Positions 458-40,712 of a stretch of 64,000 nt of DNA are shown in pieces. Origin of the DNA: an uncultured Gammaproteobacteria bacterium (GTDB taxonomy: Bacteria > Patescibacteriota > Patescibacteriia > Magasanikbacterales > GWA2-37-8); NCBI GenBank assembly GCA_964596525.1, contig CAZQUL010000001.1, forward strand, positions 12,830-76,829, written 5' to 3'. Below the pieces are notes generated by a model that was not told the DNA's origin, did not search any database, and was given only the letters and a program-made list of their open reading frames with translations. The translations under genes and the position numbers were made by a program. Position 1 is the first letter of the stretch. Every line of letters starts with the position of its first letter.

Positions 458-874
458 TTAGCCTAGCACTCGTTGATACGCTTGCTGTATTCCTTCGCGC
501 ACATGGCCTGGAGCGATGAAAGTAGGGTCGGTCTGGTAATTATGGCCATACAACTTGTCTTCAAATATCATATCCTGAAAAACGCGATGGTCGGCATACC
601 GCGGAACAAAATGCGCGTGCAGGTGGCGGTTTTCATTGCCCAAAAAACTGTAGTTGAACCAATCGGGTTTGAAAAGTTCGTGTGCAGCGAGACGTAACTC
701 CTTAATGATCGTAAACAATTCAGCTTGCTCTTCGGGCGTAGCATCGGCGAGATCGAGCGCGTCGGTACGCTTGCACCATATTATGCAGCGGCCCAGGTAA
801 CCTTGATTATGATGTACGCTGACGGTCCAGTAAGCGTACTCCTTAACTACATCGCGATAAAAATCGTTGTTCAT
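458..874 (-). CDS. HIT (histidine triad) family nucleotide hydrolase/transferase
   Basis: Histidine triad HLHAHFVPRY near the C-terminus; 138 aa, typical HIT size. Confidence 0.8.
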   Translation of the reverse strand: MNNDFYRDVVKEYAYWTVSVHHNQGYLGRCIIWCKRTDALDLADATPEEQAELFTIIKELRLAAHELFKPDWFNYSFLGNENRHLHAHFVPRYADHRVFQDMIFEDKLYGHNYQTDPTFIAPGHVREGIQQAYQRVLG

Positions 875-3681: not shown

Positions 3682-4281
3682 CTACTTTAAGAGACGGCGA
3701 TATCTTTCTTGTTTGGCGGCCAAGTATTTTTGATTCTGATTGTTCGAAGAAATAAGAAGCGGCACTGTTTTCACTATACTAACTCCACTCGCTGTGATAG
3801 CCAGGACTTTCTCGGAATTATTACTTAACAAACAAATCTCACTGATACGCAAATCGTTCAATACCGTCTTAACCATTTCATACGTGCGTTCGTCAGGCTT
3901 GTGGCCGAGCTTGATATTCGCCTCAAACGTGTCCAGACCTTTACGCTGCAGGGCATAGCTCCTTATTTTATCGTAGAGCCCAACTCCCCGCCCTTCTTGG
4001 CGCAGGTAGATAAGCACACCACCCTCATGCGCGATCTGCTTGAGCGAGAGGTGGAGCTGCTCGCCGCAATCGCAGTGACGGCTACCAAACACATCACCCG
4101 TGAGACATTCACTGTGCACACGCGTTAAAACAGGGTGAGATGGGTCAAGACTAGCTGTATAGAGAACCACCGTCTCCTTGCCTTGGCGAGCGCGGTAAAC
4201 GCGAATGGTAAACTCTCCGTAGTTCGTTACCAGAGTAGTTTCGGTGAAACGGGGACGAAAAAGAGCGGAAAGGATTTTCAT
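3682..4281 (-). CDS. ribA: GTP cyclohydrolase II
   Basis: RVHSECLTGDVFGSRHCDCGEQL zinc and GTP-binding motif. Start is placed at the internal Met MKILSALF, because the longer ORF would overlap the adjacent tRNA. Confidence 0.8.
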   Translation of the reverse strand: MKILSALFRPRFTETTLVTNYGEFTIRVYRARQGKETVVLYTASLDPSHPVLTRVHSECLTGDVFGSRHCDCGEQLHLSLKQIAHEGGVLIYLRQEGRGVGLYDKIRSYALQRKGLDTFEANIKLGHKPDERTYEMVKTVLNDLRISEICLLSNNSEKVLAITASGVSIVKTVPLLISSNNQNQKYLAAKQERYRRLLK

Positions 4282-4293
4282 ATAAAATACGTG

Positions 4294-4375
4294 TGCCGAC
4301 GGAGAGACTCGAACTCTCACGCCTTACGGCACCTGCTCCTAAGGCAGGCGTGTATACCAATTTCACCACGTCGGC
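4294..4375 (-). tRNA. tRNA-Leu (anticodon UAG), long variable arm
   Basis: Hand-folded cloverleaf. Acceptor GCCGACG/CGTCGGC, anticodon stem CCTGC/GCAGG with loop CUUAGGA, T-arm GAGAG-TTCGAGT-CTCTC. Confidence 0.8.
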
Positions 4376-7033: not shown

Positions 7034-9238
7034 ATGCGCACGCCTTGTATAGCCAGCAGTTTCATTCTTACACTTATAGCCGCCATCGGTTTCGCATCTA
7101 GTGCCGAAGCTAAAACGATTCTCACCGATGTACCGCGCGCCAGCTGGGCCCGCTACGGCATCAACCCGTGGAAGCTCGATACGGACAACGACGGCATAAA
7201 AGACAGCGAGGAAATTGCCGCCAAACAGTGCCCGACGAACGCCGACCCCACCTCTCTCACCGACAAAAACTGCAAGCGCGGCACGTTTAACCTCAAAACT
7301 GAGACATACACGGCTCCAGCGGGCGCTAATTTCCTTAAGGCGCGCGAAATTAAAAAATTCCGCTCATGCACGGAACTCACCGCTGCGTTTAAAACCGCAC
7401 AGCTCGAAGGGCAGCGTGATTACTATATGCCAGAAGCGTTCGGCATAAGCCAAACCATCCTTACGTCTGCCGCCCGTGAAGCAGTAAACATTTCCGCTCC
7501 CGCAGCAGCCGGTCTCCCTGCAGCGCCACCGATTTTTTCTACTACCAACATCCAAGTGCAAGGCGTTGACGAAGGCGATATCGTGAAAACCGATGGTAAA
7601 ACCATTTACTACCTCAAAGGGGGCAGCGCCATCTACATTACCTCGGCCGACCCGAATAAAACCGAGCCGCTCGGCGTGATTCCCATCAGCACTATCATGC
7701 AGGCGCAAGAAATGTACCTCGCGGACAACAAACTGGTCGTCGTTGGACGCGCTCATTACGGTTTAGTGCAGAGCGAAACATACACCCTCAAAAACGCTCT
7801 GGGGCTTGTAGCGAGTTCGCCTGTTTTTATGGGGAGCAATCGCACCATCGCCGCTATCTTTGATGTAAGCAATCCAGAACGCACAAGCGTGCCGCGCGTC
7901 GTTGAGATCACGGGTAATCTGCGCACATCACGCCTCACCAACGGGTATTTATATCTGATCCTCAACCAGTCCATTCCCTACTACCTCTCCCCTTCAGCCG
8001 CCACCGACGCATTGCCGCAGATGCGCAACTTCAATAACATCGCTTCCATTACCACGGTTGCAGACAGTCAGTCAGCTCCCGGTTTCAAACCACTCGCTAA
8101 CTGCACGAACGTAGAATATCTCTACCCTAACCGCGGTACCGGCTACGTAGAAATTGTCGCCATTCCGGTAAATGATGCAAAAGCAGCGATCGGCAGCAAG
8201 GTCATCTGGGGCGTCGGTTCAGCCGATGAAATCTATGTTTCGCCAACGAACCTCTACATCGCCTCCCCCAATTATCAGTATCGCTTCTGGCGCGGTACGG
8301 TAGAGAGAAGTGAGCTTTATAAATTCTCGCTCAACAAAAACACCATCAAATTCGTCGCTGCCCAAACCGTACCAGGACATGTGCTCAACCAGTTCTCAAT
8401 GGACGAACAGAGCGGACTTTTACGCCTTGTCACCACTGAACGCGAACGCACGCGCACCGGTGATTTCGTCAATCATCTCTTCGTTTTGAACGATGATTTA
8501 AGCAACCTCGGCAGCGTTGATCGTTTTGCCCCGACGGAGCGCATCTATTCAGCCCGTTTCATGGGTGATCGTGCCTACGTTGTCACGTTCCGCACGGTGG
8601 ATCCCTTCATCGTATTCGACCTTAAAGATCCGCGTTCACCGCAATACATCGGCGAACTCAAGATTCCGGGCTTCTCCACGTACCTACACCCATACGATGC
8701 CACGCACATCATCGGCATTGGCCGCAACACCGGTGCCGATGAAAACGGCACGGTCTGGACCGAAGGCATCAAACTCGGCCTCTTCGACGTGACGAATCCG
8801 AATATTCCGACCCAGATGTTCTCCACCACCATCGGGGACCGCGGCACGGATTCTATCGCGCTCGACGACCACCATGCTTTCCTTTTCTCGCGCGAGAAAA
8901 ACCTCCTCGCTTTCCCGGTGCGCATCCACACGTTCACGGACGAACAAAAAAATTCCACCACTACCCGGCCATGGGAATACGGTTCGCAGACCTTCCAAGG
9001 ACTTCTTGCATACCGACTCGATCTTATGAACGGCTTTAGGGAAATCGGCCGCGTGACGCACCATTCCACGACCACGCCGGATGAAGTCTGCATCTATAGC
9101 GCAGCGCTCTTTGGCTGCGGCAGCGACGAGGTGCGTCGTTCCTTCTACATCAACGATAATCTCTATGTCTTCTCGGATAAGCAGATGACGGTGCATAGCC
9201 TGGGTAATCTGCTCAAACTATCTGAAGTGAAATATTAA
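7034..9238 (+). CDS. secreted beta-propeller domain protein (signal peptide)
   Basis: N-terminal signal peptide ending SSAEA. The VQGVDEGDIVKTDGKTIYYL segment is typical of the secreted Beta_propel domain family. It is followed by a terminator hairpin. Confidence 0.65.
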   Translation: MRTPCIASSFILTLIAAIGFASSAEAKTILTDVPRASWARYGINPWKLDTDNDGIKDSEEIAAKQCPTNADPTSLTDKNCKRGTFNLKTETYTAPAGANFLKAREIKKFRSCTELTAAFKTAQLEGQRDYYMPEAFGISQTILTSAAREAVNISAPAAAGLPAAPPIFSTTNIQVQGVDEGDIVKTDGKTIYYLKGGSAIYITSADPNKTEPLGVIPISTIMQAQEMYLADNKLVVVGRAHYGLVQSETYTLKNALGLVASSPVFMGSNRTIAAIFDVSNPERTSVPRVVEITGNLRTSRLTNGYLYLILNQSIPYYLSPSAATDALPQMRNFNNIASITTVADSQSAPGFKPLANCTNVEYLYPNRGTGYVEIVAIPVNDAKAAIGSKVIWGVGSADEIYVSPTNLYIASPNYQYRFWRGTVERSELYKFSLNKNTIKFVAAQTVPGHVLNQFSMDEQSGLLRLVTTERERTRTGDFVNHLFVLNDDLSNLGSVDRFAPTERIYSARFMGDRAYVVTFRTVDPFIVFDLKDPRSPQYIGELKIPGFSTYLHPYDATHIIGIGRNTGADENGTVWTEGIKLGLFDVTNPNIPTQMFSTTIGDRGTDSIALDDHHAFLFSREKNLLAFPVRIHTFTDEQKNSTTTRPWEYGSQTFQGLLAYRLDLMNGFREIGRVTHHSTTTPDEVCIYSAALFGCGSDEVRRSFYINDNLYVFSDKQMTVHSLGNLLKLSEVKY

Positions 9239-9262
9239 ACCAAGACAGCTAAACATAGACAA

Positions 9263-9292
9263 ATACTCTCCGTAATGGAGAGTATTTAATTT
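9263..9292 (+). terminator. Rho-independent terminator after 7034..9238
   Basis: Stem atactctcc/ggagagtat with a 5-nt loop, then a T-rich tract. Confidence 0.7.
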
Positions 9293-9394
9293 ACCGCAAC
9301 CTTGACAGAAAACAGTAGTTCAGGCATAATAAGCCGTTCCTGCATTGCTCTGTCTGCACCACAAACGCCTTTACTGCGAGATAGGAGAGCGCTC

Positions 9395-9865
9395 ATGACG
9401 ACCACCGGATCAACACCGCAGACCCCCTCCCTGGCCGATGAAGTTCGGAACACGAAGCCGGAGATCATCGACATACACAAGCTTGAAGAATGCCATCGTG
9501 ACGACGATGACGACGAATTTACGCTGGATAACGTCATAAATAGTTCGCATGTGCAGGACTGCTTCGCCTGCCTCACCAAGCTCCAGCACATGATCCAGGC
9601 GCATCGAGCCAAGCTTGTCGTTAAAGACTTGGTCCGCCGCGCGAAGCGTGTTCGGGCGGCGGGCATCAACCACATCTGCTCGCTAAAGGCGGCTCGCTTC
9701 TCGAGCGATGACATCGAGTATCACGGGGTGGAAGACTGCGCCACACCCTCAATCCACATGAAGGATGGCTCGCTCATGGAATCAACGGCCAAGGCCCTGC
9801 GTGCCGCTGGATTCACCGTCACCCACGACCAGAACGACCCCAGCAACCTCATCGCCTCCTGGTAG
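9395..9865 (+). CDS. hypothetical acidic protein
   Basis: Start at MTTTGS, preceded by AGGAGAG. Contains a poly-Asp stretch; no known motif. Confidence 0.45.
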   Translation: MTTTGSTPQTPSLADEVRNTKPEIIDIHKLEECHRDDDDDEFTLDNVINSSHVQDCFACLTKLQHMIQAHRAKLVVKDLVRRAKRVRAAGINHICSLKAARFSSDDIEYHGVEDCATPSIHMKDGSLMESTAKALRAAGFTVTHDQNDPSNLIASW

Positions 9866-9885
9866 CACCACTCCTTCTCCTCCAA

Positions 9886-9917
9886 CCCCTCGTCCTTGAA
9901 CGAGGGGTTTGCAATTT
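9886..9917. terminator. bidirectional terminator between convergent genes
   Basis: Stem cccctcg/cgagggg with an 8-nt loop, flanked by A- and T-rich tracts. Confidence 0.65.
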
Positions 9918-9933
9918 AAATCGTTTTAAAAAA

Positions 9934-10542
9934 TTATTCCTTACCTGATACAGTTGCATCTTTCTCATTAACCAACCACTCTCCCAGCTGCGTAAAATGA
10001 TTATGTTCCGCAAAATAATCGAGCAGGTTTTTAAATTCATCATCAGGCATATCACTCAGCGCATACGCATTTGTTGTCATAAACTTAGGAATATACAACC
10101 GCCAGTAGTCGGACATGAGCGGACGTTTAATTTCGCGCGGCTCAAGAGCTAGTTCACCTGCTTCAACAAGCGTAAAAACCCGGCACTCGCCCGGCCCTGT
10201 GGCGTACGCGACGCTTCGCCGCCATGAACACGAACGATCAGAAGCGCCTTCCATCATCTTAAGGATATTTTCGATACCAAGCGTTTTGAGCGAGAATTTT
10301 ACGTGCGTCATCGGAAACCCGCCGAGCGCATGGATGAAAAATCCGGAATCTTCGACTATAACCGGCTCGTTGCACAGCTTAAACGCCTGCATCGCTTTTT
10401 CGCGGGCGATATCGGCCGGATCTTCAGCCCGACTCTCAACCAAATCAGCATCCCATTGTTCAACGGAAATGCCGAATTTTAACAGTGCTTTGTGCGCCTG
10501 CTCGACTTTGCTTGTATTGGAAGTGACGAAGCGTAGTAGCAT
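9934..10542 (-). CDS. non-canonical purine NTP pyrophosphatase (HAM1/RdgB family)-like
   Basis: N-terminal VTSNTSKVEQ (ATxNxxKxxE-like) and VIVEDSGFFIHALGGFPMTHVKF (EDSGLxxxALxGxPG-like). Confidence 0.55.
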   Translation of the reverse strand: MLLRFVTSNTSKVEQAHKALLKFGISVEQWDADLVESRAEDPADIAREKAMQAFKLCNEPVIVEDSGFFIHALGGFPMTHVKFSLKTLGIENILKMMEGASDRSCSWRRSVAYATGPGECRVFTLVEAGELALEPREIKRPLMSDYWRLYIPKFMTTNAYALSDMPDDEFKNLLDYFAEHNHFTQLGEWLVNEKDATVSGKE

Positions 10543-10616
10543 ACAATATTGACGTTAGTTTATTCTTCTGATACACAACGAACGGTTCTCTCAAACGGTA
10601 TGAAAAGGAGCTCTTC

Positions 10617-11600
10617 ATGACTTACGACCTCGTTATTGTCGGCGGCGGCCCAGCCGGGCTTTCGGCCGCGATCACCGCCGCTTCCGATGGGTTGCGTACC
10701 GCCATTATTGATTCCAAGCAGGGCTGGGGCGGTCAGGCCAAAGAAAGCTCGTTCATCGAAAACTACCCGGGATTTCCACTCGGAGTGAACGGTGGTGAGC
10801 TGATCAGCAAGTTCGTTGCCCAGGCCGGAAAATTCGGCGTCGAGATGCATTGTCCGGTCAAAGTCGTCGGTCTACGGCGCGACGGCGACCGCATCATACT
10901 GACAACGCCAAGTGGGGCACTCGAAACCCGCACGGTCATTCTGGCCGTTGGCCTATCGTATATTCGGCTCGAAGCGCAGAATATCGGCCAGTTTGTCGGT
11001 CGCGGAGTGTGGTATTACAGCACCTTAACCGTTTTGCCGCACGGCCACAATCCATCATATTTCGTCATTGGCGGCGGCAATTCCGCCGGGCAAGCTGCCT
11101 TGCATCTGGCAAAAAATCCGTTCGCAACCGTGAACCTCACGGTGCGTGGATCCACGCTTGACGGCATGTCCGAATACCTGCGGCTCAAAATCGCCGCTGA
11201 AAAAAACATTCGCGTGCGCCTCGCCACCGAGATCATCAAAGTGTGCGGGCACGACGGACTAGAAGAAGTAACTCTCAAAGAGCGGGATAAAACCGAGTCA
11301 TACCAGGAACCCGCGAATGGCGTGTACATCTTTATCGGCGCACAACCCAAGACGTATTGGCTGCGTGAAACCCTCACTCTCGACCGGCGCGGCTATATTG
11401 TTACCGGCTCGGACCTGCGTGATTTGAGCGCGGGAGAGGGGCGTCCACCGCTTGATTTTGAAACGAGCATGTCCGGAGTATTCGCTGCCGGTGACGTACG
11501 CTCAGGTGCAACGAAACGAGTCGTTTCCGCCTGCGGTGCAGGAACGATCGCGGTCCAGATGGTCCGCCGCTATCTAGCCGAAAAAAATTCGGGAATCTAA
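10617..11600 (+). CDS. thioredoxin-reductase-like FAD-dependent oxidoreductase, probably ferredoxin-NADP reductase type
   Basis: DLVIVGGGPAGLSAA FAD-binding site, a second dinucleotide-binding GGGNSAG, and C-terminal GVFAAGDV. There is no CxxC redox centre at the TrxB position. Confidence 0.75.
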   Translation: MTYDLVIVGGGPAGLSAAITAASDGLRTAIIDSKQGWGGQAKESSFIENYPGFPLGVNGGELISKFVAQAGKFGVEMHCPVKVVGLRRDGDRIILTTPSGALETRTVILAVGLSYIRLEAQNIGQFVGRGVWYYSTLTVLPHGHNPSYFVIGGGNSAGQAALHLAKNPFATVNLTVRGSTLDGMSEYLRLKIAAEKNIRVRLATEIIKVCGHDGLEEVTLKERDKTESYQEPANGVYIFIGAQPKTYWLRETLTLDRRGYIVTGSDLRDLSAGEGRPPLDFETSMSGVFAAGDVRSGATKRVVSACGAGTIAVQMVRRYLAEKNSGI

Positions 11601-14770: not shown

Positions 14771-15364
14771 CTAACTCAGGGTAGCACCTGCAGTTTTAGC
14801 ATTGTCGTTTTTTGGCCACGGACGGCGTTTGATGGGACGCTGCGGAATGAGGAACTTCGCTTTGTCCAAGCTTAAATCGGTAAAGTCGTCTGACGCTTCG
14901 AGCAGTTTGCCGCTCGTCGTATTACCAAAGGCCATTACTTCCACCTGCTTACCTTGATTGCGCAGATACTCAATAAGCGGCACGTAGTCACCATCACCGC
15001 TGACGAGCACGATCGCGTCAAGGCTCGGCGCCAAGCGGATGGCATCAACAGCAATACCCACGTCCCAATCGGCTTTTTTCTCCCCACCATAAAAGATCTG
15101 GAGCGGCTTGTCTTTGGTTTCGATGCCTTGATTATAGAGCGCATCGAAAAATGGCTGCTCTTCTTTGCTTTCCGTGGAAACTACGTAGGCAATGGCGCGG
15201 ATGAGCTTGCGGCCAGCCGTGGCTTCTTCTACGATGCGGCCGAAATTGACTTTAGCGCCAAAAAGGTTCTTGGCGCTATAGTACATATTCTGAACATCGA
15301 TAAACACCCCGACGCGCTGATCGGGGTGTTTAAGCGGATGATTTTTATCGTTAATGTGCGGCAT
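14771..15364 (-). CDS. NYN-domain (LabA-like) predicted RNase
   Basis: GVFIDVQNMYY and LVSGDGDYVPLI NYN signatures. Confidence 0.7.
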   Translation of the reverse strand: MPHINDKNHPLKHPDQRVGVFIDVQNMYYSAKNLFGAKVNFGRIVEEATAGRKLIRAIAYVVSTESKEEQPFFDALYNQGIETKDKPLQIFYGGEKKADWDVGIAVDAIRLAPSLDAIVLVSGDGDYVPLIEYLRNQGKQVEVMAFGNTTSGKLLEASDDFTDLSLDKAKFLIPQRPIKRRPWPKNDNAKTAGATLS

Positions 15365-16747: not shown

Positions 16748-16819
16748 GGTCCCGTAGTTCAATGGATAGAACGAGAGCCTTCTAAGCTCTAGACCTAGGT
16801 TCGATTCCTAGCGGGACTA
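16748..16819 (+). tRNA. tRNA-Arg (anticodon UCU)
   Basis: Hand-folded. Acceptor GGTCCCG/CGGGACT, anticodon stem AGAGC/GCTCT with loop CUUCUAA, T-arm CTAGG-TTCGATT-CCTAG. Confidence 0.8.
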
Positions 16820-16886
16820 CATAAACAAAGCGTGGGTTCTTAGCAAACAATCCACCAAAAATAATCATCGATTTTTGATAGATTCC

Positions 16887-17666: not shown

Positions 17667-17739
17667 GGTGGCCATGGTATAATGGTTATTACGCGAGATT
17701 GTGGCTCTCGCAATACGGGTTCGATTCCCGTTGGTCACC
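17667..17739 (+). tRNA. tRNA-His (anticodon GUG) with encoded G-1
   Basis: Extra 5' G pairs with discriminator C. Acceptor GTGGCCA/TGGTCAC, anticodon stem CGAGA/TCTCG with loop UUGUGGC. Confidence 0.8.
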
Positions 17740-17911
17740 CCTACGAAAGGAAAACCATGCCGAAATATGGCATGGTTTTCTGATTATCGGCGTTTTTTCT
17801 CCTATTACCAGTTGACAAAAACTAATTTTTTGGTTACTATCACACGTTACTAACCGCGCCTGAACTGTGCGGGATATGCTCTGTTTAGAACCCACAACCA
17901 CGAGGTGCCGT

Positions 17912-18826: not shown

Positions 18827-19495
18827 CTACGGCAGACGCCATGGAACTACCTGTTCTTTAAATACGATATTTTGTTTTGACCACGGCCACCGACGGGCGC
18901 TTTCGTATACCAAAACGGCAGCGTTGGGCACGACCGATTCTTTTTTGTAGCGCTCAACCACGTCTTCGGGCGAGGTGTCGTGCAGGATTTTCTGAAGGAG
19001 TAGTAGCCAATTGCCATGAGTAACCACCAAGATACGCTGCCCCACGAAATCACGCCGCAGCATGTCGAGGAAGCTATGGATACGCAACTCCACATCGGGC
19101 CAATTTTCGCCACCAAGCGGACGGTAATGATAGAGCCCCTCCTGTTTCTTGCGGATTTCCTCGTGCGGGAAGAGCGTGCTAACCTGCTCGGCGGTAACAT
19201 TGTTCCAATAGCCGCGTTGTGCTTCGGCCAAGCGGGCATCGAGACGCGGTGTTATGCTAGGGTAAATGTACCGAAGCGTTTCGCGCGCCCGCGTGTAATA
19301 GGAAGCGAAATACGTATCGAACGCTCCGAAACGGGCACGCAGATACGCCCCGGTTTTTTCGGCTTGCTCCACGCCGTAGGGACTGAGCGGAAAAGCATGG
19401 TTAGGGATCGTAAGCAGCGCCCGCTCGTCGGGCGTACGAATATTTCCCTCGGACTCCGCATGGCGGACAAAGACGATGAGGCGCGGCCAGGACAT
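18827..19495 (-). CDS. histidine phosphatase family protein (phosphoglycerate mutase-like)
   Basis: RHAESEGN catalytic motif and VVTHGNW. Confidence 0.75.
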   Translation of the reverse strand: MSWPRLIVFVRHAESEGNIRTPDERALLTIPNHAFPLSPYGVEQAEKTGAYLRARFGAFDTYFASYYTRARETLRYIYPSITPRLDARLAEAQRGYWNNVTAEQVSTLFPHEEIRKKQEGLYHYRPLGGENWPDVELRIHSFLDMLRRDFVGQRILVVTHGNWLLLLQKILHDTSPEDVVERYKKESVVPNAAVLVYESARRWPWSKQNIVFKEQVVPWRLP

Positions 19496-25680: not shown

Positions 25681-26055
25681 TTAGGCGCGAAAGACGATCT
25701 GGCCTGTACCGGCGACGTAGAATCGCCGGACCTTGTCGAGGTCCATGTCGCGGCCGCTGACGCGCAAGGCGTTGTAATTGGTGGCAACGCCGGCGATGTA
25801 GTCGGGAAGATCGCCCTCATTATCCCGGTAGTCGCACAAGACTCCTATGGTGTAGCCGTCATAGATGACGACCATGCCATTAACAATGGCGAAGGCTGCC
25901 TTGATGACGCCGGGCAGGATCTGGATCCGAACGTCTGCAAAAATATCGTGGACTTGCAGCGCGATTGGACGCGACATGTCGAGATCACGGCCGTGCTCGC
26001 CGCAATTGATCGACAGATGAATCGGCAACTTACTTTCGAACAATGTCCGCGGCAT
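25681..26055 (-). CDS. hypothetical protein
   Basis: 124-aa ORF. Confidence 0.4.
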   Translation of the reverse strand: MPRTLFESKLPIHLSINCGEHGRDLDMSRPIALQVHDIFADVRIQILPGVIKAAFAIVNGMVVIYDGYTIGVLCDYRDNEGDLPDYIAGVATNYNALRVSGRDMDLDKVRRFYVAGTGQIVFRA

Positions 26056-26242
26056 TCTCGACCCCCTCAGGTATTCATCGGGTTGAAGTCCACACCAGAA
26101 GATGCTCTAGTGTAGAACAGAAAACAGTAACGCATTCCTGTGCTTGGCGTCAAATTTTTGGCCTGACAGGTTTGACAAACATTGTACGGCGGATGTATAT
26201 TTGCCTGTTCCTCGAACGTGAGGAAACACTGAGGAGGGGCCG

Positions 26243-27229
26243 ATGTACGAACATCTTGTGAGCCGTTTCAACCTTCAGCCGGGTGACTACGAATTGTGGC
26301 AGCGGTGGGAACGTACCCGCAGTCAGGGAGTCAGCTGGCGGGATTACCTAAGCGTCCTTTGCACACCTGAAGTAAGGAATCCGTTCAAGGCTTTGGCGAT
26401 TATCGCACTTCTCACACCACGCAGCGCCCACATGTTTGCGCTCCACGAGCTCGACCTCACCTTGCTTTCGGCTGATGCACTGCAGTTCTTTGCGTACCAA
26501 CTCGAAAAATTCACAAAGAGCCAGGCGCTCGGCGGTACCCGGCGGCGTTACAACGATCTCATCATCAAGACACTCGAAGTCCTGGGTGAGACCGAAGAAC
26601 AGGCCGTCGCGCTCTTCCGGCTGTTTTCGATCGTCGACCCGATGGACAAGCAGGGAACGCCGGAGTACTACGGCTATCGACCACTCGGGAACCTGTGGAT
26701 TTCGGGAGTTCCGGAATTCTGGAAGCGCGAAGCCGACCGACGCATGCGCGACCGGATCGCGAGCGAAGCCCAGACGCCCAACGACGTACCGGGCGTACGA
26801 TCTCTTCTCAGCTCTTTTGCCGAAGAAATCGAGCGCGCGCACGAACAGAAAGGTCGGCCCTACAGCGGGCACCTCCTCGAGCGGCAGCTTAATACCATTA
26901 TTTTCGAGCAGCCGCAGCGTATCATCCATGGCTATAACCCGTTCCGATCAAGTCATGTATGGTACCTGCTCAGGAACCTTGGTTACTCGCGCATGGCGAA
27001 AAGCCTGATCAAGTTCGTGCGCAGCTCCGAGCGTGGTGATACGGCGTTCAAAGTGCGCGATGACGCAAGCCTGCGAAGCGCTGAGAAGATGGTGGATGTT
27101 CTAAAGGATGATACCGAGGTGGCAGAGGAAATCCGGGACATGATCCGCACCTACACTAGTTCTCCCGAAGTTAGAGAACGCGAACACGCAATGCAAGAGT
27201 CCGAGCTCGCTTTCCACGCTCTGTGCTAG
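26243..27229 (+). CDS. hypothetical protein
   Basis: 328-aa ORF with coding-like composition, followed by a terminator. Confidence 0.5.
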   Translation: MYEHLVSRFNLQPGDYELWQRWERTRSQGVSWRDYLSVLCTPEVRNPFKALAIIALLTPRSAHMFALHELDLTLLSADALQFFAYQLEKFTKSQALGGTRRRYNDLIIKTLEVLGETEEQAVALFRLFSIVDPMDKQGTPEYYGYRPLGNLWISGVPEFWKREADRRMRDRIASEAQTPNDVPGVRSLLSSFAEEIERAHEQKGRPYSGHLLERQLNTIIFEQPQRIIHGYNPFRSSHVWYLLRNLGYSRMAKSLIKFVRSSERGDTAFKVRDDASLRSAEKMVDVLKDDTEVAEEIRDMIRTYTSSPEVREREHAMQESELAFHALC

Positions 27230-27284: not shown

Positions 27285-30200
27285 TTAGACCACAACGGAA
27301 AGAAGCTTGCCTTTCACGTAAATGATCTTCTTCGGTTCATTGCCTTCGAGCCATTTTATCACTTTCTCGCTCGCGAGCGCGCGCTTTTTTATTTCATCCT
27401 CGCTCGTTTCAGCGGCAACGGTGAGCGTATCGCGTACCTTGCCGTTAACCTGCACGGCGATTTCGAGTTCCTGCGCTTTGGCAAGATCTGAATCATATGC
27501 GGGCCAGGCGGCGTACGCCACACTCCCCTCTTCGCCGAGCGCGCGCCACAGCTCTTCGGACAGGTGTGGCGCAAAAGGTGCGACGAGCCGAACGACGATT
27601 GATAGCGTTTCACGGGTTAAATTTTCTTCACGAGCCAAATCGTTAGAAAGTTCCATCAAACTTGCGACCGCAGTGTTGAAACGCATCGCTTCGATGTCTT
27701 CGGAAACTTTCTTGATGGTCCGATGGAGAGTATTGAGCACACCGGGAGAATCCGAGGTTTGAGATTCAGTTTCTGCAATCTTTATTTTCTGCGTGAGCCC
27801 CCACACTTTTTCCAAGAACCTTCTCACCCCGACGAGTCCGTTCGTGTCCCATTCGACCGGCTGATCGAACGGTCCCATGAACATGATGTAGGTGCGGAGC
27901 GTATCGGCACCGTAGTCGGCGATCACGTCGTCGGGATTCACCACGTTACCTTTGCTTTTGCTCATCTTCTCACCACCTTTGGCGAGGATGAGGCCGTGCG
28001 AAGTGCGTTTTTTGTACGGTTCGCTCACCGGTACAAGCCCGATGTCGAATAAGAATTGGTTCCAGAACCGCGAGTAGAGCAGATGGAGCACCGTGTGTTC
28101 CATACCGCCGTTATACCAATCGACTCCGCCTTCGCCTGGCTTCGGCGAGGCAAGCCCGCCATTCGTCATCCAGTATTTTAGTTTTTCCGATGAGGCGAAT
28201 TGTTTGTCGTTATGCGGATCGCAATAACGCAAGAAATACCAGCTCGAACCGGCCCAGTTGGGCATGGTGTCGGTTTCGCGGCGAGCGGCTCCGCCACAGC
28301 GCGGACACGTAGTTTTAACCCAGGATTCGATGGCGGCCAGAGGAGATTCCCCCGTATCGGTCGGTTCGTATTTTTCCACCTTCGGCAACTTGAGTGGAAG
28401 TTCAGATTCAGGAAGCGGAATCCAACCAGGATTAAGCTTTTCTCCTTCTGTTCTAAAAGTTATGGAATCTTTATTATTAGCGCACGAGAAACAGAACACA
28501 AGCGGAATCGGCTCGCCCCAATAACGCTGACGTGAAAATACCCAATCACGCAGCTTGAACTGCACTTCTTTTTTTCCGAGACCGCGCTCTTCGAGTCGAG
28601 CGATGATTTTTTCACGCGCCTCGGCCGTTCCAAGGCCGGTGAATTCGTGGGAGTTGGTAAGAACGCCTTCGCCGGTCCAGAGCTCGTCTTTAAGGACGCG
28701 TTTCCACATGAGGCGCATGTCCTGCACCCATGAGAGGAATTGATCAACTTCGTTCTTGTTTACCCAGTGCAGATCTTGGATATCTTGCTCTTCTTTGGAC
28801 ACTTCTTTCCGGTCGCCATTCTCGAGCTGAAAAAGAAACGGCTGAAAATGCGCCCAGCGGTTTTCGCTCTTTACTACTTGGTAGTACTGCGCATGAATGA
28901 TGCCGCCGAGTTTGCGCACAAGCTTGGCCGAGGTATAACCCGTTTCTTCCACGATTTCGCGCGCGGCGGTTTGGGCCGCGTCTTCGCCATCTTCGATGCC
29001 GCCGATGACGAACCCGCGCCAATCGGTTTTTTTCCATTTGAAGCAAAGATACTTGTCTTCACTCCAGTGTTTGACGATCGCGACCGCGTTGTGGCGTTTC
29101 TTGAAGGGTTCACTGCTGCGCACCGCATCGTCGCCGGTGGTTTTCTTGAAGAGCGGTTCAACAACTTCTCTCACCGGCAAACCGAACGTTTGGGCGAATT
29201 CGAAATCGCGTTCGTCGTGCGCTGGCACGGCCATGATGGCGCCGGTGCCGTAACCCGGAAGCACATAGTCAGCGACGAATATTGGCAGTTCCTTGCCCGT
29301 GAGCGGATGAAGCGCTTTCAATCCTTTAAGCTCTACCCCACTCTTGCCTTTCGCCAGATCGGTACGTTCCAAATCCGATTTCTTGCGGGTTGCTTCGATA
29401 TACTTTCTCACCTCGTCTGCATTTGTGATATCTGCTACCCACGCTTCGACATCTTTATGTTCGGGCGCAACAACGAGAAATTCGACGCCAAACAAAGTGT
29501 CGGGCCGGGTGGTGAAGACTTCGATTGTAGTTTCGTCATTGCGAGCCGAGGTACGGGGTGAATCAATCGCTTTGTTATCAGAACTTATTTTGGCAGCAGA
29601 GTCCGAAGTTGATTTTGGGGATTGCTTCGCTTTGCTCGCAATGACAGAGAAGATAATTCGCGCCCCTTCGCTTTTCCCGATCCAATTCTCTTGCTGCGTT
29701 TTTGCCTGCGGAATGTAATCAACGTCTTTGAGCCCGGCGAGGAGTTTGTCGGCGTACTTCGTAATGGCGAGCATCCACTGTTCTTTGTCACGGCGCTCCA
29801 CGGCCGTACCGCACCGCTCACAACAGCCGTTTACCACTTCTTCGTTGGCGAGACCGATTTTGTCTTTGGGGCACCAATTGATGGGCTGGTTTTTTTTGTA
29901 GGCGAGACCATGTTTATAAAATTGTAAAAACAACCACTGCGTCCATTTAAAGTACGCGGGGTCGGTGGTATCGACGACACGCGACCAGTCGAAACTGAAA
30001 CCAGACGCTTTGAGCTGGCGCGTAAAGGTAGCGATGTTTTCAGCGGTCACGTCGGAGGGCAGCCGGCCAGTTTTGATAGCAAAGTTTTCAGTCGGGAGTC
30101 CGAACGCGTCGAAGCCGATGGGGTACAACACGTTCTCTCCCTGCATGCGGCGCTTGCGGGCGATAACGTCCATGGCCGTAAACGGACGGCTATGACCCAC

Positions 30201-30347
30201 ATGCAAGCCAGCGCCGGAGGGATACGGAAATTCAATAAGGGCGAAAAATTTTTTCTTAGCTTCGTCTTCAGAGACGGCGAACGTCTTGTTTTTATCCCAG
30301 AATTCCTGCCATTTCTTTTCGATCTCGGCGGGGGTGTACTTGTGCAT
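27285..30347 (-). CDS. leuS: leucyl-tRNA synthetase with inserted Nudix hydrolase domain
   Basis: HVGH, the editing-domain segments TTRPDTLFG and GTGAIMAVPAHDERDFEFA, and KMSKS are all present. The Nudix box GGIEDGEDAAQTAAREIVEETGY lies within an approx 160-aa insertion (aa 395-555). Confidence 0.95.
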   Translation of the reverse strand: MHKYTPAEIEKKWQEFWDKNKTFAVSEDEAKKKFFALIEFPYPSGAGLHVGHSRPFTAMDVIARKRRMQGENVLYPIGFDAFGLPTENFAIKTGRLPSDVTAENIATFTRQLKASGFSFDWSRVVDTTDPAYFKWTQWLFLQFYKHGLAYKKNQPINWCPKDKIGLANEEVVNGCCERCGTAVERRDKEQWMLAITKYADKLLAGLKDVDYIPQAKTQQENWIGKSEGARIIFSVIASKAKQSPKSTSDSAAKISSDNKAIDSPRTSARNDETTIEVFTTRPDTLFGVEFLVVAPEHKDVEAWVADITNADEVRKYIEATRKKSDLERTDLAKGKSGVELKGLKALHPLTGKELPIFVADYVLPGYGTGAIMAVPAHDERDFEFAQTFGLPVREVVEPLFKKTTGDDAVRSSEPFKKRHNAVAIVKHWSEDKYLCFKWKKTDWRGFVIGGIEDGEDAAQTAAREIVEETGYTSAKLVRKLGGIIHAQYYQVVKSENRWAHFQPFLFQLENGDRKEVSKEEQDIQDLHWVNKNEVDQFLSWVQDMRLMWKRVLKDELWTGEGVLTNSHEFTGLGTAEAREKIIARLEERGLGKKEVQFKLRDWVFSRQRYWGEPIPLVFCFSCANNKDSITFRTEGEKLNPGWIPLPESELPLKLPKVEKYEPTDTGESPLAAIESWVKTTCPRCGGAARRETDTMPNWAGSSWYFLRYCDPHNDKQFASSEKLKYWMTNGGLASPKPGEGGVDWYNGGMEHTVLHLLYSRFWNQFLFDIGLVPVSEPYKKRTSHGLILAKGGEKMSKSKGNVVNPDDVIADYGADTLRTYIMFMGPFDQPVEWDTNGLVGVRRFLEKVWGLTQKIKIAETESQTSDSPGVLNTLHRTIKKVSEDIEAMRFNTAVASLMELSNDLAREENLTRETLSIVVRLVAPFAPHLSEELWRALGEEGSVAYAAWPAYDSDLAKAQELEIAVQVNGKVRDTLTVAAETSEDEIKKRALASEKVIKWLEGNEPKKIIYVKGKLLSVVV

Positions 30348-30489: not shown

Positions 30490-30999
30490 ATGCCCCATCC
30501 GCCGATCGGAGCCCATTTCCTCAACCACATGGCCGGCTGCAACCAAGAGATGCGCGAGCTCCGTCTCGCACGAGAACGGAAGGATCCGAATTTTCAGAAG
30601 ATCCAAGAAATCGTGGAATGGTTCGAAAAGTTTTTTGCGGGTCAAGCCGGCCGCATTACCAAAGAAACGCTCACCGAATACCGCGCCCGAGCGCGTTTGT
30701 GTGCCATGCCGGAGGGGAACGGCAAGCGAGAGCGATTTTACTTTCTGACAAGCGAAGGCCTAGTCGTGTCCGGGGCAGACTGGAGCATGCTCTTCGCCAC
30801 TACTCTGCACGCCTTTGCCCGCGATGTGGTGGAAAGCGGTGTTGAATTCTCGACTATCATGCACCATCTCACGCGCTCGATCGAGAACCTGGTCAACTGG
30901 ATGCCGGTTCCGTGCGATCCCGAGCCAAGCCTGCCGCTAGCTCTCATCGTTTCTCCCCAAGCCAAAGCCAACACCGCAGAACACGGTACGGCCAGCTAA
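30490..30999 (+). CDS. hypothetical protein
   Basis: 169-aa ORF. Confidence 0.45.
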   Translation: MPHPPIGAHFLNHMAGCNQEMRELRLARERKDPNFQKIQEIVEWFEKFFAGQAGRITKETLTEYRARARLCAMPEGNGKRERFYFLTSEGLVVSGADWSMLFATTLHAFARDVVESGVEFSTIMHHLTRSIENLVNWMPVPCDPEPSLPLALIVSPQAKANTAEHGTAS

Positions 31000-31148
31000 G
31001 TACGGAAGGCACTTTCTAAGCCTATGACAGCAGACTCTCCGTCTGCTTTTTTGCACCATAATTTCTCGCGGACCGAGTTGACAAAATTATACTGTCGCCT
31101 ATAGTGTGTAAGCCCTGCATCCACGCAATTCTACGACGGAGAGACACC

Positions 31149-31610
31149 ATGCAAACCGCTCTGAGCGAACTTGCTTCGGAGATTGACAGTACGCTGCAAC
31201 GAGCAGCCGCGCAGCGCAAAGCGCACGAAGAGGCAGGCAGAAGGCAGCATTTCAAAGAATTGCTCGACAAACTAGAGGAATACCTGGTCGGAACTGGGCC
31301 AGGCGGTGGATACGATATGCCTTTGCGCCGTGAAGGGGAACAGATCCGACAGCTCCTTAGCCAAACCGGCACGTTCATCGTCCTTTTTCAAGAGACCGGA
31401 CAAGTTCCGCTTACCCGCGAATTGATACTCAACCCCTCAGGCGAGATTATCTCGAGGCCACGCGGGCCGGGCTACGAATCCACGATCGAATTCTCTCGGC
31501 TCGCCGAAGTTCTGACGAGAAATGCCATTTCCTTCGAAGAGCTCCGACTGAGAGTTCAGAATCAAGCCCGTGCTATACTAACAGATCTAAAAGCCACGCT
31601 CGACATCTAA
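31149..31610 (+). CDS. hypothetical protein
   Basis: Start at MQTAL, preceded by GGAGAG. Followed by a terminator. Confidence 0.45.
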   Translation: MQTALSELASEIDSTLQRAAAQRKAHEEAGRRQHFKELLDKLEEYLVGTGPGGGYDMPLRREGEQIRQLLSQTGTFIVLFQETGQVPLTRELILNPSGEIISRPRGPGYESTIEFSRLAEVLTRNAISFEELRLRVQNQARAILTDLKATLDI

Positions 31611-31675
31611 ATGAGCAGTCTCTTGGGCGAGCACTCTAGACACGACGGTGTCAATTCGTACAAGCAATCCATAAC

Positions 31676-31723
31676 AGACCCGCCTACCTCTAGGTAGAGA
31701 GTGTTATACGGGTCTTTTTGTTT
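31676..31723 (+). terminator. terminator after 31149..31610
   Basis: Stem agacccg/cgggtct with a long loop, then TTTTTGTTT. Confidence 0.5.
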
Positions 31724-31727
31724 ATTA

Positions 31728-31756
31728 TTGACAAAAGGGCATTTTTATAGTACAAT
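31728..31756 (+). promoter_or_regulatory. consensus sigma70 promoter (TTGACA-17-TACAAT)
   Basis: ttgacaaaagggcatttttatagtacaat, directly upstream of the small-ORF pair. Confidence 0.65.
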
Positions 31757-31803
31757 TTTTTGTCCGCTTTGCGCGGCTTTGACAATCAATGAAAGGAGTC
31801 GTC

Positions 31804-32010
31804 ATGGCAACACTCGTACCGAAAATCCTACATCAGGACGCTGAGTCGGTTATCTGGAGGTTCAATCGAATTCTCGACAGCGAGCAAGAACGAGAGGTGA
31901 AAGCTGCCATCCTTGGCGAATTTAAAAGTTCCAGCCGCACAGCCGTAACAGTGCTGCCAGTCAACCGGTCATCTACCATCGTCGTTGCCCGGATCATGGA
32001 TTCTTTCTAG
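31804..32010 (+). CDS. small hypothetical protein (68 aa)
   Basis: ATG 5 nt after GAAAGGAG; 17 nt from the next ORF. Confidence 0.45.
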   Translation: MATLVPKILHQDAESVIWRFNRILDSEQEREVKAAILGEFKSSSRTAVTVLPVNRSSTIVVARIMDSF

Positions 32011-32027
32011 CACCCAAGGAGCATGCC

Positions 32028-32603
32028 ATGGACAGCCGAATCAACGTAATCATCGAAAAGATCCAGGCCTTCTTGAAAGGCCCGCAGTGGAAGCAGGCGC
32101 TCGAGAAGCTCAACCCCAAGCAAAAAACCAACCCGCTGATCTTCTTCTACACCGGGAAAGGCCGCTTCATCATCCTCAGGCCCGACGGATTCTACGAGTC
32201 GCAGTGGGCCGAAAAAAAGAACACGCTCACTCCGCGTAGCATCGCGGAAGTCGCTGATGCCGTGACACTGCAAGAGGCCTCGATCGACCAAATCTTGACC
32301 AAGCTCATCAACGAGCTCAAGAGAAGACGGCTCATTCCGCAGTCGATCACCATCGCAATCGAAGGCCGGAACTACCAATTCCTTGTTCCGCGCGGCGTCG
32401 GACTCATCCAGATCGGCATCGAGCACGCCCTGGTCGAGTACTCCTCTTCTGAGGATTCTTACGCCGGCCACTCCCTGCGCGGAACCGGGCTTGTAATCGC
32501 CCGCGGCGAGAAAGTTCTACGCTCGATCGTTACGACCAAACTCCTTTCTACCGACTACCGAGAGTACGACGGAGCGCCGATCAATCCAGGCACGCTCATG
32601 TAG
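32028..32603 (+). CDS. hypothetical protein
   Basis: RBS CAAGGAG; 191 aa. Confidence 0.5.
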   Translation: MDSRINVIIEKIQAFLKGPQWKQALEKLNPKQKTNPLIFFYTGKGRFIILRPDGFYESQWAEKKNTLTPRSIAEVADAVTLQEASIDQILTKLINELKRRRLIPQSITIAIEGRNYQFLVPRGVGLIQIGIEHALVEYSSSEDSYAGHSLRGTGLVIARGEKVLRSIVTTKLLSTDYREYDGAPINPGTLM

Positions 32604-32871
32604 ACGCACCCCGCTTACCCCCGCCCGACGCATATCCGCGCCATCCGATGGGCACACAACAGACCCATCTCCCTTTCTTTCCAAAAAATTGGGAAAAGAG
32701 GGAGGGTCTGTTTTGTTTTTCGCTAAAAAACCACACGAAACTAAACGCGCAGTGATGAGAATTTTCCATATATTTGTCTAAATTTTGATAATCCCATCAT
32801 ATTGTTGACAATATTAAATAAAGGTGATAGGCTGTCCCCGCCTTCCAAACCAACTCGACAAGGACAACGAC

Positions 32872-33276
32872 ATGTACCAGAAGATCCGAAACGCACTTAT
32901 CGCTGCCGGCTGCACGTTTTTCCTCTCGTTTTCCGCCTGCAACGACGACGGCCTGACCGCAGAGGCCATGTCCGAAACCTGGCGCAAGATGACCAGTCCC
33001 AACGAGCTTTTGATCCGCGATGCCTGCGCGGGGAATCTCATCGATGGATTTCCTGGCAGCGGTGAAGTGAAGAGGCGCTCCATCTGCATTCTCAATCCAG
33101 AGGTATCGACCGAGGAATGCCGATATGAGATGGACAGAGCTGCCCCGATTCTGGCCAACAAGCGAACCTTGATGCCCGAGGATGGCAGCGGCAGCTGCGG
33201 CATTTCGAAGCTCCCCTTCATGGGTGGCGAGATCATTGGCTGTACCTACTGCGAATGGACAGTCCAGAAGAAGTAG
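32872..33276 (+). CDS. small Cys-rich lipoprotein
   Basis: MYQKIRNALIAAGCTFFLSFSAC lipobox; 10 Cys in the mature part. Confidence 0.5.
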   Translation: MYQKIRNALIAAGCTFFLSFSACNDDGLTAEAMSETWRKMTSPNELLIRDACAGNLIDGFPGSGEVKRRSICILNPEVSTEECRYEMDRAAPILANKRTLMPEDGSGSCGISKLPFMGGEIIGCTYCEWTVQKK

Positions 33277-40566: not shown

Positions 40567-40630
40567 ACATTACGAAATAATTCCTACCTAAAGAGGAAAA
40601 AATAAAAAGGTTGAGTTAGGATGTTTAGTG

Positions 40631-40712
40631 TGGGGATAGAGGGACTCGAACCCTCAAGGATTACTCCATACGCTTCTGAGACGTACGCGTATACCAATTC
40701 CGCCATATCCCC
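40631..40712 (-). tRNA. tRNA-Leu (anticodon CAG), long variable arm
   Basis: Hand-folded. Acceptor GGGGATA/TATCCCC, anticodon loop CUCAGAA, T-arm GAGGG-TTCGAGT-CCCTC. Confidence 0.75.

Follow-up and report, generated by a model that had tools for sequence, protein, structure and literature searches.

A putative Nudix hydrolase nested in the editing domain of a patescibacterial leucyl-tRNA synthetase, and its synthetase-associated relatives

Aminoacyl-tRNA synthetases (aaRSs) are among the most studied enzymes, and the domains that have been added to them have usually revealed new biology. A precedent for an unrelated catalytic domain in a class Ia synthetase is given by the NCBIfam model NF040702 (isoleucine--tRNA ligase, N-acetyltransferase domain-containing). 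We know of no described bacterial synthetase in which a second, unrelated catalytic domain is nested in the proofreading domain. Here, we analysed the leucyl-tRNA synthetase (LeuRS) encoded by leuS at 27285..30347 on the minus strand of a 64,000-nucleotide (nt) stretch of contig CAZQUL010000001.1 (assembly GCA_964596525.1, GTDB order Magasanikbacterales), which we call the window. A sequence-only reading of the window had proposed that this protein of 1020 amino acids (aa) contains a complete Nudix hydrolase domain, and our profile searches agree. The protein matches both the bacterial LeuRS model TIGR00396 (leuS_bact; 933.5 bits, cut-off 548.4) and the Pfam family NUDIX (PF00293; 48.4 bits, E 1.2e-12). 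The arrangement differs from that of NF040702, where the host is IleRS, the additional domain is a GNAT and the position is another one; the LeuRS studied here matches NF040702 via its synthetase core only (66 bits compared to a cut-off of 1999).

The insert comprises the Nudix domain and two linkers and spans aa 398–557 (28677..29156, minus strand as for all features of leuS below), a position that we term site B. In an alignment to the LeuRS of Thermus thermophilus (1h3n), it replaces a 14-residue loop (residues 364–377) inside the CP1 editing domain, and this loop begins 16 residues past the motif HDERD. The previously proposed bounds (28683..29165) lie within a few codons of these aligned limits. 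The proposed placement between the end of CP1 and the synthetase core has to be corrected, as the segment EGVLTNS...KLRDW that follows the insert is still covered by the editing-domain match; the insert is thus located inside CP1. PF00293 matches aa 418–542 (28722..29096) above its gathering score of 21.1, and the score increases to 52.5 bits (E 6.8e-14) when the excised segment is searched. The Nudix box GX5EX7REUXEEXGU (GGIEDGEDAAQTAAREIVEETGY, aa 449–471) is found exactly at the reported nt 28935..29003, as seen by regular-expression scan and by translation, and includes the predicted catalytic residues R463, E464, E467 and E468. The same regular expression gave no match besides the leuS box in all six frames of the window.

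Structure prediction with AlphaFold2 (AF2) agrees with the profile matches. A model of aa 396–560, built with 36 homologous inserts, is predicted to have the strand-helix order of an autonomous Nudix fold, with a predicted local distance difference test score (pLDDT) of 94.7 and a predicted template modelling score (pTM) of 0.88. In the full-length model (pLDDT 83.5, pTM 0.72), the Nudix domain and both linkers are predicted at a pLDDT of about 90–95. The family hidden Markov model (HMM), the box and an alpha/beta/alpha sandwich fold as an autonomous domain, which together mark the Nudix superfamily, are all found in the insert. Because the HMM match and the canonical box coincide with a confident fold and with conservation in more than 100 homologue clusters, we consider it almost certain that a complete autonomous Nudix domain is nested in this LeuRS.

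The conservation of the insert suggests that it is an enzyme. R463, E464, E467 and E468 are invariant in 36 diverse inserts of 21–77% identity (alignment A1). Among 279 copies of the Nudix subfamily, made non-redundant at 90% identity, E464 is conserved in 99%, E467 in 96% and E468 in 100%. Several residues specific to the subfamily are conserved to a similar degree (R418 94%, K493 97%, N496 94%, W528 99%). The mean pairwise identity among the subfamily copies is about 33%, compared to 60–73% for the LeuRS core. We conclude that the Nudix insert is probably catalytically competent and apparently active.

By its motifs and profile matches, the host is a full-length, functional-looking bacterial LeuRS. 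It is encoded in one open frame without stop or frameshift, and the match to TIGR00396 consists of two stretches that flank the insert. The top PDB matches are the LeuRS of T. thermophilus (E 1e-194) and of E. coli (E 1e-185); in the alignment to 1h3n, aa 271–397 correspond to residues 239–363 and aa 558–792 to residues 378–582. Translation reveals the HIGH signature of the class I synthetic site (HVGH, aa 49–52, 30192..30203), which is invariant in the LeuRS alignment A2, and the KMSKS signature (aa 794–798, 27954..27968), likewise conserved in A2. The N-terminal part of CP1 (aa 271–397, 29157..29537) is matched by Pfam tRNA-synt_1_2 (aa 270–402, 178.6 bits). It includes the T-rich motif TTRPDT (aa 279–284, 29496..29513) and HDERD (aa 377–381, 29205..29219), which we take to hold the editing-site aspartate; both motifs are (near-)invariant in alignment A2. 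The C-terminal part of CP1 (aa 558–598, 28554..28676) aligns to the T. thermophilus LeuRS from residue 378 and leads into RDWVFSRQRYWGEPIP.

Additional segments are found at two further sites. At the entry of CP1 (site A), a Ser/Lys-rich insert of 33 aa (aa 238–270, 29538..29636) falls between residues 238 and 239 of the T. thermophilus LeuRS. The Ser/Lys-rich insertion that had been noticed at aa 235–275 is hence real, and it is predicted to be disordered (aa 240–271, pLDDT about 30–36 in the full-length AF2 model). Site C, about 30 aa past the RDW motif RDWVFSRQRYWG, contains 18 residues (aa 623–640, ANNKDSITFRTEGEKLNP, 28428..28481) that fall into a gap of the same alignment, and a further small extra segment of 13 aa is located at about aa 729–741. 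The leucine-specific domain (residues 583–636 in T. thermophilus) has no counterpart in the query LeuRS, where aa 792–794 (about 27960..27975) span residues 582–637. This domain is present in the LeuRS of T. thermophilus and E. coli, is variable among bacteria and is not defining alone. Insert-free LeuRS relatives of the Candidate Phyla Radiation (CPR), which are 821–845 aa long, probably do not contain it either, as judged by their length.

An artefact, be it a frameshift, a chimeric assembly or a mis-joining of leuS and a separate nudix gene, had been named as the alternative to a true insertion. It does not agree with the data: the frame is open throughout, the base composition of the insert is no different from that of the rest of leuS, and an identical protein (P0001) is encoded on a separate NCBI contig of 1.34 Mb. 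Furthermore, NCBI, JGI, ENA and Logan assemblies together provide more than 100 clusters with the same architecture, and the full-length AF2 model has a confident continuous fold. An intein that is spliced out was also considered. Among the eight families found in a Pfam scan of the whole protein (E up to 1), there was no intein or Hint family, and the splicing residues (Cys/Ser ... His-Asn-Cys/Ser/Thr) are absent from the junctions VVE/PLFKK ... ELW/TGEG. On the sequence data, artefacts and inteins were thus ruled out, and we regard it as practically impossible that either accounts for the insert.

To follow the distribution of the insert, we surveyed LeuRS orthologues, as the sequence-only reading had suggested. 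PF00293 was found in nearly all of the best 120 LeuRS clusters, and the long spacing at the same loop was present in 107 of the 118 close clusters in which both flanking motifs could be anchored. The flanking motifs are 212–233 residues apart when the insert is present, compared to 45–122 residues in most others; one outlier (P0096) is longer. Named clusters with the insert come from Magasanikbacteria, Uhrbacteria, Taylorbacteria, Paceibacterota and the 'Patescibacteria group'. Similarly, 27 GTDB species genomes encode a Nudix domain of the subfamily inside the LeuRS open reading frame (ORF), and these are labelled as Patescibacteria, Paceibacterota, Taylor-, Magasanik- and other CPR names. 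A search of 1.84 billion representative proteins with the insert profile resulted in 182 matches at E<1e-30 and 1828 matches at E<1e-10; most of the top matches, not all, are LeuRS. In a metagenome scan, we detected 18 loci, and the eight best-matching ones that were examined are all located inside LeuRS-sized ORFs (934–1136 aa).

The same three sites take up different domains in different relatives. At site A, we found one or two more Nudix domains of the same subfamily, an ASCH domain, an endonuclease-like DUF559 domain or an alpha/beta hydrolase. Site C contains an alpha/beta 'Ser_hydrolase' (PF06821) of 160–190 aa or a HAD phosphatase in some relatives (P0016, P0014, P0077, P0083). The LeuRS studied here has the Nudix domain at site B, only a disordered linker at site A and the 18 extra residues at site C. 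Up to three Nudix domains of the subfamily can be present in one LeuRS, with a tandem pair at site A and one at site B (P0121, P0122 and P0101, the latter at locus L018). P0101, which is 1722 aa long, also contains alpha/beta hydrolase and HAD domains. Where a source provides a name, Nudix-bearing LeuRS often appear only as 'class I tRNA ligase family protein', 'hypothetical protein' or 'alpha/beta fold hydrolase'; insert-free relatives are named leucine--tRNA ligase. The inserts thus seem to degrade the automatic naming of the essential leuS gene, and essential LeuRS genes in CPR-type genomes may be under-annotated.

When comparing inserts to their hosts, we find that the two have different relationships. 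The query insert is 51–61% identical to the inserts of P0043, P0030, P0032, P0046 and P0068, whose LeuRS cores match the query at only 60–62%. It is only 25–35% identical to the inserts of P0008, P0013 and P0020, despite LeuRS cores that are 71–73% identical. Within a tight LeuRS clade, where the cores are 91–96% identical, the inserts of P0037 and P0060 share 24% identity, and P0095, P0104 and P0105 are without an insert. Three loci of this clade illustrate the exchange at the DNA level, as their leuS genes contain one type of Nudix domain (L094, P0060), no insert (L095, P0095) and another type of Nudix domain (L096, P0037). Away from the insert, these genes are mostly 85–98% identical per window of 100 nt. 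Identity is 74–89% in the windows beside the insert and 73–89% over the last 300–500 nt of the gene. Between the variants, the insert region is either unrelated (42–60% DNA identity) or absent. The variants come from independent assemblies; 18 contigs encode P0060, and P0095 is encoded by contigs that reach several hundred kb (474.5 kb in one case). No junction repeats or target-site duplications are obvious by eye in the three loci, where no formal repeat search was run.

The drop in identity beside the insert would fit a replacement by recombination. As the module varies or is missing among near-identical leuS genes, we conclude that it is an accessory and not part of the LeuRS mechanism. 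By this comparison of genes, the Nudix module is exchangeable at one fixed loop, is gained, lost or swapped on short time scales, and is dispensable for LeuRS. That it is dispensable and exchangeable argues against an integral role in LeuRS editing.

The Nudix subfamily is not restricted to LeuRS. The same domain is present in a class II prolyl-tRNA synthetase (ProRS) of 643 aa (P0251), located between the anticodon-binding domain and the ProRS C-terminal domain. This domain matches the insert profile with 137 bits and the generic Pfam NUDIX with only 29 bits. Five ProRS clusters contain the insert (P0251 and P0287–P0290), and they group with insert-free ProRS that are about 485 aa long and, where named, come from Nanoarchaeota and Woesearchaeota. 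The Nudix-bearing, archaeal-type ProRS (about 643 aa) probably come from DPANN archaea. By domain arrangement, one Nudix subfamily has thus been inserted convergently into two synthetases, a bacterial one of class I and an archaeal one of class II.

Free-standing proteins of the subfamily are about 160–190 aa long, and we surveyed the gene context of eight of them. Two are located directly upstream of leuS, at a distance of 2 nt from a leuS that also has the insert (P0151) and of 3 nt from a leuS without insert (P0170, translation checked). P0283 lies 87 nt upstream of thrS, and P0271 follows argS after 13 nt, with an IleRS gene that has an inserted His_Phos_1 domain just downstream of it. P0174 is two genes away from a bacterial ProRS gene, and P0185 is two genes upstream of a Nudix-insert ProRS (L013:2762-4693, P0289-like). 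The remaining two are found 5 nt downstream of fpg/mutM (P0172) and among unrelated small genes (P0239). Thus, an aaRS gene occurs within two genes in six of the eight loci. If about 20 of 800 genes encode an aaRS and each locus has a 10% chance of such a neighbour, a rough binomial estimate for this frequency is about 2e-5; it rises to about 2e-4 when the two syntenic leuS loci are treated as one. That a Nudix gene abuts an insert-free leuS, together with the fused arrangement, points to a coupling of function or regulation. Within 3 kb of the 27 GTDB leuS loci with a subfamily match, no free-standing copy was detected except for one antisense-frame match in L025.

By similarity, the free-standing copies and the copies in LeuRS site A, LeuRS site B and ProRS are intermixed. 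Taken together, residue conservation and gene context place the insert in a Nudix subfamily of its own, which occurs in ultra-small prokaryotes and is tied to aaRSs. Other fusions of the subfamily are a GNAT-Nudix-GNAT-M17 leucyl aminopeptidase (P0261, 1318 aa) and a Nudix-peptidase S51 protein (P0286, 385 aa). In the loci L005–L008 (about 7386-10890), an IleRS of 1167 aa contains an inserted His_Phos_1 (PF00300), as listed by precomputed Pfam domains only. It is flanked by two Nudix genes, an MBL-fold hydrolase, a PNPOx and an ITPase-like NTPase, and by a HAD hydrolase in one variant.

Which substrate class the insert may act on is suggested by its relatives. The closest match by both structure and profile is the 'MutT/nudix family protein' 2azw of Enterococcus faecalis (about 17–19% identity). 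The best characterised PDB sequence match is the diadenosine tetraphosphate (Ap4A) hydrolase 3i7u of Aquifex (E 5e-4; profile E 4e-10; template modelling score, TM, 0.80). In the profile ranking, 2azw is followed by AvrM14 and the MutT-annotated 3fk9, and then by CT771 and the Ap4A hydrolases of Aquifex and lupin. Among the NCBIfam families, RppH/NudH is the best for the insert alone and for every free member tested, at 20–40 bits compared to equivalog cut-offs of 116–259 (PRK00714 models). When the whole protein is searched, MutT1 has a slightly better E-value than the other Nudix families, at a score far below its cut-off. The characterised neighbours are enriched in (di)nucleoside polyphosphate hydrolases and RNA 5'-end enzymes. 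The nearest ones are hydrolases of diadenosine polyphosphates (ApnA hydrolases), which share 15–24% identity with the insert and score only slightly better than MutT, NudI and DIPP-type enzymes. In ApnA hydrolases, a conserved tyrosine of the X-loop, past the Nudix box, confers specificity (PMC5389931). In our alignment, Y488/Y489 of the query fall on the Y-W of the Aquifex Ap4A hydrolase and would correspond to this residue, Tyr87 in the human enzyme.

Because the nearest characterised relatives are ApnA hydrolases and RppH and the subfamily is associated with aaRSs, our leading model is the clearance, in cis or locally, of Ap4A and other dinucleoside polyphosphates (ApnN) made by the synthetase; we hold this model tentatively, as a good possibility that falls short of being probable. 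In this model, an enzyme-bound aminoacyl-adenylate would react with ATP or another NTP on the synthetase, and the Mg2+-binding glutamates of REx2EE would cleave the pyrophosphate bond in the resulting (di)nucleoside polyphosphate of the Ap4A/ApnN type. Cleavage would return AMP and ATP (or NTP) to the pool at the producing enzyme. CPR and DPANN organisms are generally not known to synthesise nucleotides de novo, and such a return would be valuable to hosts of this kind. The sequence-only reading had also listed aminoacyl-adenylates as classic Nudix substrates. These are rather classic substrates of the HIT family, as they are acyl-phosphate anhydrides and not pyrophosphates.

Several observations weigh against ApnN clearance. 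Across the subfamily, the specificity aromatic residue is Phe in 63% and Tyr in only 22% of the copies. All matches to characterised Nudix families are far below the cut-offs (RppH 28.6 compared to 118 bits) at 15–26% identity, the closest structure 2azw is a functionally uncharacterised protein, and the fold-neighbour scores differ so modestly that the enrichment of ApnA hydrolases is suggestive at best. In the older biochemical literature, LeuRS is reported as a weak producer of Ap4A, with none made by ArgRS. Furthermore, the free copies beside fpg (P0172) or among nucleotide-sanitation genes (P0271) fit a MutT-like role, and it is uncommon for a housekeeping function to be present, absent or replaced in genes as similar as these leuS genes.

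One alternative is that the domain serves MutT-like sanitation of the nucleotide pool, where it would remove damaged or non-canonical (d)NTPs such as 8-oxo-(d)GTP and would merely be hosted by, or co-transcribed with, the constitutively expressed synthetase genes of tiny genomes, with no mechanistic coupling to aminoacylation. The gene cluster of P0271 also includes dTMP kinase, dUTPase, a further Nudix and an ITPase-like NTPase; the copy P0172 has fpg/mutM as its direct neighbour. The structural neighbours include M. smegmatis MutT1 and Rv2985 (8-oxo-(d)GTP phosphatase and ApnA hydrolase), the NCBIfam MutT1 model is second-best for the insert alone (27.4 bits), and free forms are automatically named 'MutT' by their sources. 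That LeuRS can dispense with the insert agrees with such a role, as does the insertion of other generic housekeeping hydrolases (HAD, His_Phos_1, alpha/beta) into these synthetases. However, the subfamily is linked to five different synthetases by insertion or adjacency, including the six free loci, which is far beyond chance and more specific than an association with any essential gene. MutT family models score only 12.6 bits (TIGR00586, cut-off 97.9) and 15.0 bits (NF008044, cut-off 148), and as many as three domains of one subfamily in a single LeuRS would be odd for a sanitation enzyme. We consider pool sanitation somewhat unlikely. A catalytically dead insert with a structural or regulatory function, e.g. 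as a tRNA- or protein-binding surface, is highly improbable in our view. Non-enzymatic proteins with a Nudix fold do exist (PMC5389931), and the insert evolves fast outside of its motifs compared to the core. Yet the metal-binding and catalytic residues, including the glutamates, are 96–100% conserved over the 279 copies at a mean identity of about 33%, which indicates selection for catalysis and argues against a dead structural insert.

Alternatively, the synthetase may provide a platform for an enzyme acting on RNA or tRNA ends, by RppH-like removal of a 5' pyrophosphate or of an Np4A or NAD cap, or by cleaving a toxic group off the acceptor end while it is bound in CP1. RppH consistently comes first among the curated families, for inserted as well as free members, and both RppH and the decapping Nudix enzymes AvrM14 and Dcp2 are high in the fold and profile rankings. 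CP1 receives the 3' end of the tRNA, which adjoins the 5' end of the acceptor stem, and a relative has an RNA-binding ASCH domain at site A; the insert in ProRS follows the anticodon-binding domain. We nevertheless find this role unlikely, given that the scores are far below the RppH cut-offs, that the free-standing members have no RNA-binding extension and that the 5' ends of bacterial tRNAs are normally monophosphates produced by RNase P. A broader view is that the synthetases of ultra-small prokaryotes, LeuRS above all but also ProRS and IleRS, offer docking sites to exchangeable hydrolase cassettes (Nudix, alpha/beta hydrolase, HAD, His_Phos_1, ASCH, DUF559) that would act on the tRNA acceptor end or on nucleotide toxins directed at the synthetase. 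These would form a layer of tRNA-end repair, deprotection or immunity in the aminoacylation enzyme, exchanged between strains by recombination. The Nudix domain in CP1 could then remove a 5' triphosphate or cap, or a pyrophosphate or nucleotide added by a toxin, from tRNALeu while CP1 holds its end. This general proposal also appears unlikely to us. A specific role in conflict or immunity, where the hydrolases would destroy nucleotide-type toxins that target the synthetase or would undo modifications made by toxins, seems very unlikely. It would fit the rapid gain, loss and replacement at a fixed site among near-identical leuS genes (90–97% DNA identity), the alternative enzyme cassettes at three hot spots, including the endonuclease-like DUF559, and the multi-copy arrays. 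The NCBIfam exception model 'ileS_w_GNAT' is analogous, and the GNAT-Nudix-GNAT-M17 peptidase fusion is related. However, PADLOC-DB 2.0 gave only a weak match to a candidate model (PDC-S07; 19–26 bits, E 1.6e-6 to 1.8e-4, three of five members), and we saw neither a toxin partner nor a defence island in the surroundings of leuS within the window. We also know of no Nudix enzyme that cleaves aminoacyl-sulfamoyl or phosphoramidate adenylate mimics.

The genes around leuS do not point to a particular function. At E<=0.001, no Pfam family matches the ORFs that flank leuS (25681..27229 and 30490..33236; 328, 124, 169, 168, 191 and 140 aa). These Pfam-blank neighbours include 26243..27229, 25681..26055, 30490..30999, 31104..31610 and 32028..32603, and several of the predicted ORFs overlap ORFs in alternative frames. 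A polysaccharide deacetylase and an FAD oxidoreductase are the only Pfam-matched genes near leuS. The sequence-only reading had pointed out HIT-family and HAM1-like enzymes in the same window. Both are present by Pfam, a HIT-family protein at 458..874 (27.4 bits) and a Ham1/ITPase-like protein at 9934..10542 (66 bits), both on the minus strand, but they are 17–27 kb away and have no specific link to leuS. Pfam further identifies a GTP cyclohydrolase II (3682..4320), an NYN-domain nuclease (14771..15364) and a free-standing His_Phos_1 phosphatase (18827..19495), all on the minus strand; like the former two, none is near leuS. Rfam detects only four tRNAs in the window, tRNA-Leu(TAG) at 4293..4375 and tRNA-Leu(CAG) at 40630..40712, both on the minus strand, tRNA-Arg(TCT) at 16748..16820 and tRNA-His(GTG) at 17668..17741. 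It finds neither a leader or riboswitch upstream of leuS nor an RNase P RNA in the window.

LeuRS-Nudix sequences are already public, with precomputed Pfam domains. No LeuRS-Nudix or other aaRS-Nudix architecture was found by full-text searching of the literature, nor by look-ups that included a broad review of the Nudix clan and the AARS Online database paper. The aaRS-associated Nudix subfamily, its convergent insertion into ProRS, the cassette polymorphism and the three hot spots thus appear to be undescribed so far. An exchangeable second enzyme inside CP1 would be surprising to a specialist. If the domain clears Ap4A-type nucleotides, this would be the first synthetase that polices its own alarmone output, and it would offer a handle on the nucleotide economy of CPR and DPANN organisms. 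If it acts on tRNA ends or toxins, it would constitute a new layer of quality control or immunity. Whatever its function, the subfamily, with its convergent insertion and its cassette exchange between near-identical genes, is a tractable system for studying how enzymes acquire domains.

Lastly, we compared the protein to the systems that resemble it most. With bacterial-type LeuRS (1h3n/2byt, the E. coli 4aq7 family and TIGR00396), it shares the placement of CP1 after the first Rossmann half, the motifs HIGH, KMSKS, TTRPDT and HDxRD, and the anticodon-binding and C-terminal domains. It differs from the T. thermophilus LeuRS by a Nudix domain of 160 aa in place of the loop 364–377, by the disordered insert of 33 aa, by the extra segments of 18 and 13 aa and by the absent leucine-specific domain. 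The Nudix protein 2azw is free-standing, comes from a Firmicute and has no known substrate, so that no function can be transferred from it to the LeuRS insert. The ApnA hydrolases and RppH (Aquifex 3i7u, T. thermophilus Ndx1, Chlamydia CT771, M. tuberculosis Rv2985 and E. coli RppH), which are 15–24% identical to the insert, are free proteins, whereas the insert subfamily is embedded in a synthetase and has a signature of its own (R418, K493-x2-N496-R497, H524 and W528). The proposed logic of ApnN clearance is the same as in the LysRS-Ap4A-Hint/NUDT2 axis and in the systems of ApaH and YqeK. There, a dedicated hydrolase removes the Ap4A or Ap4N that a synthetase makes as a side-product. This hydrolase is a protein separate from the synthetase, of the Nudix, HIT, ApaH or HD type, whereas in the LeuRS described here it would be built in.

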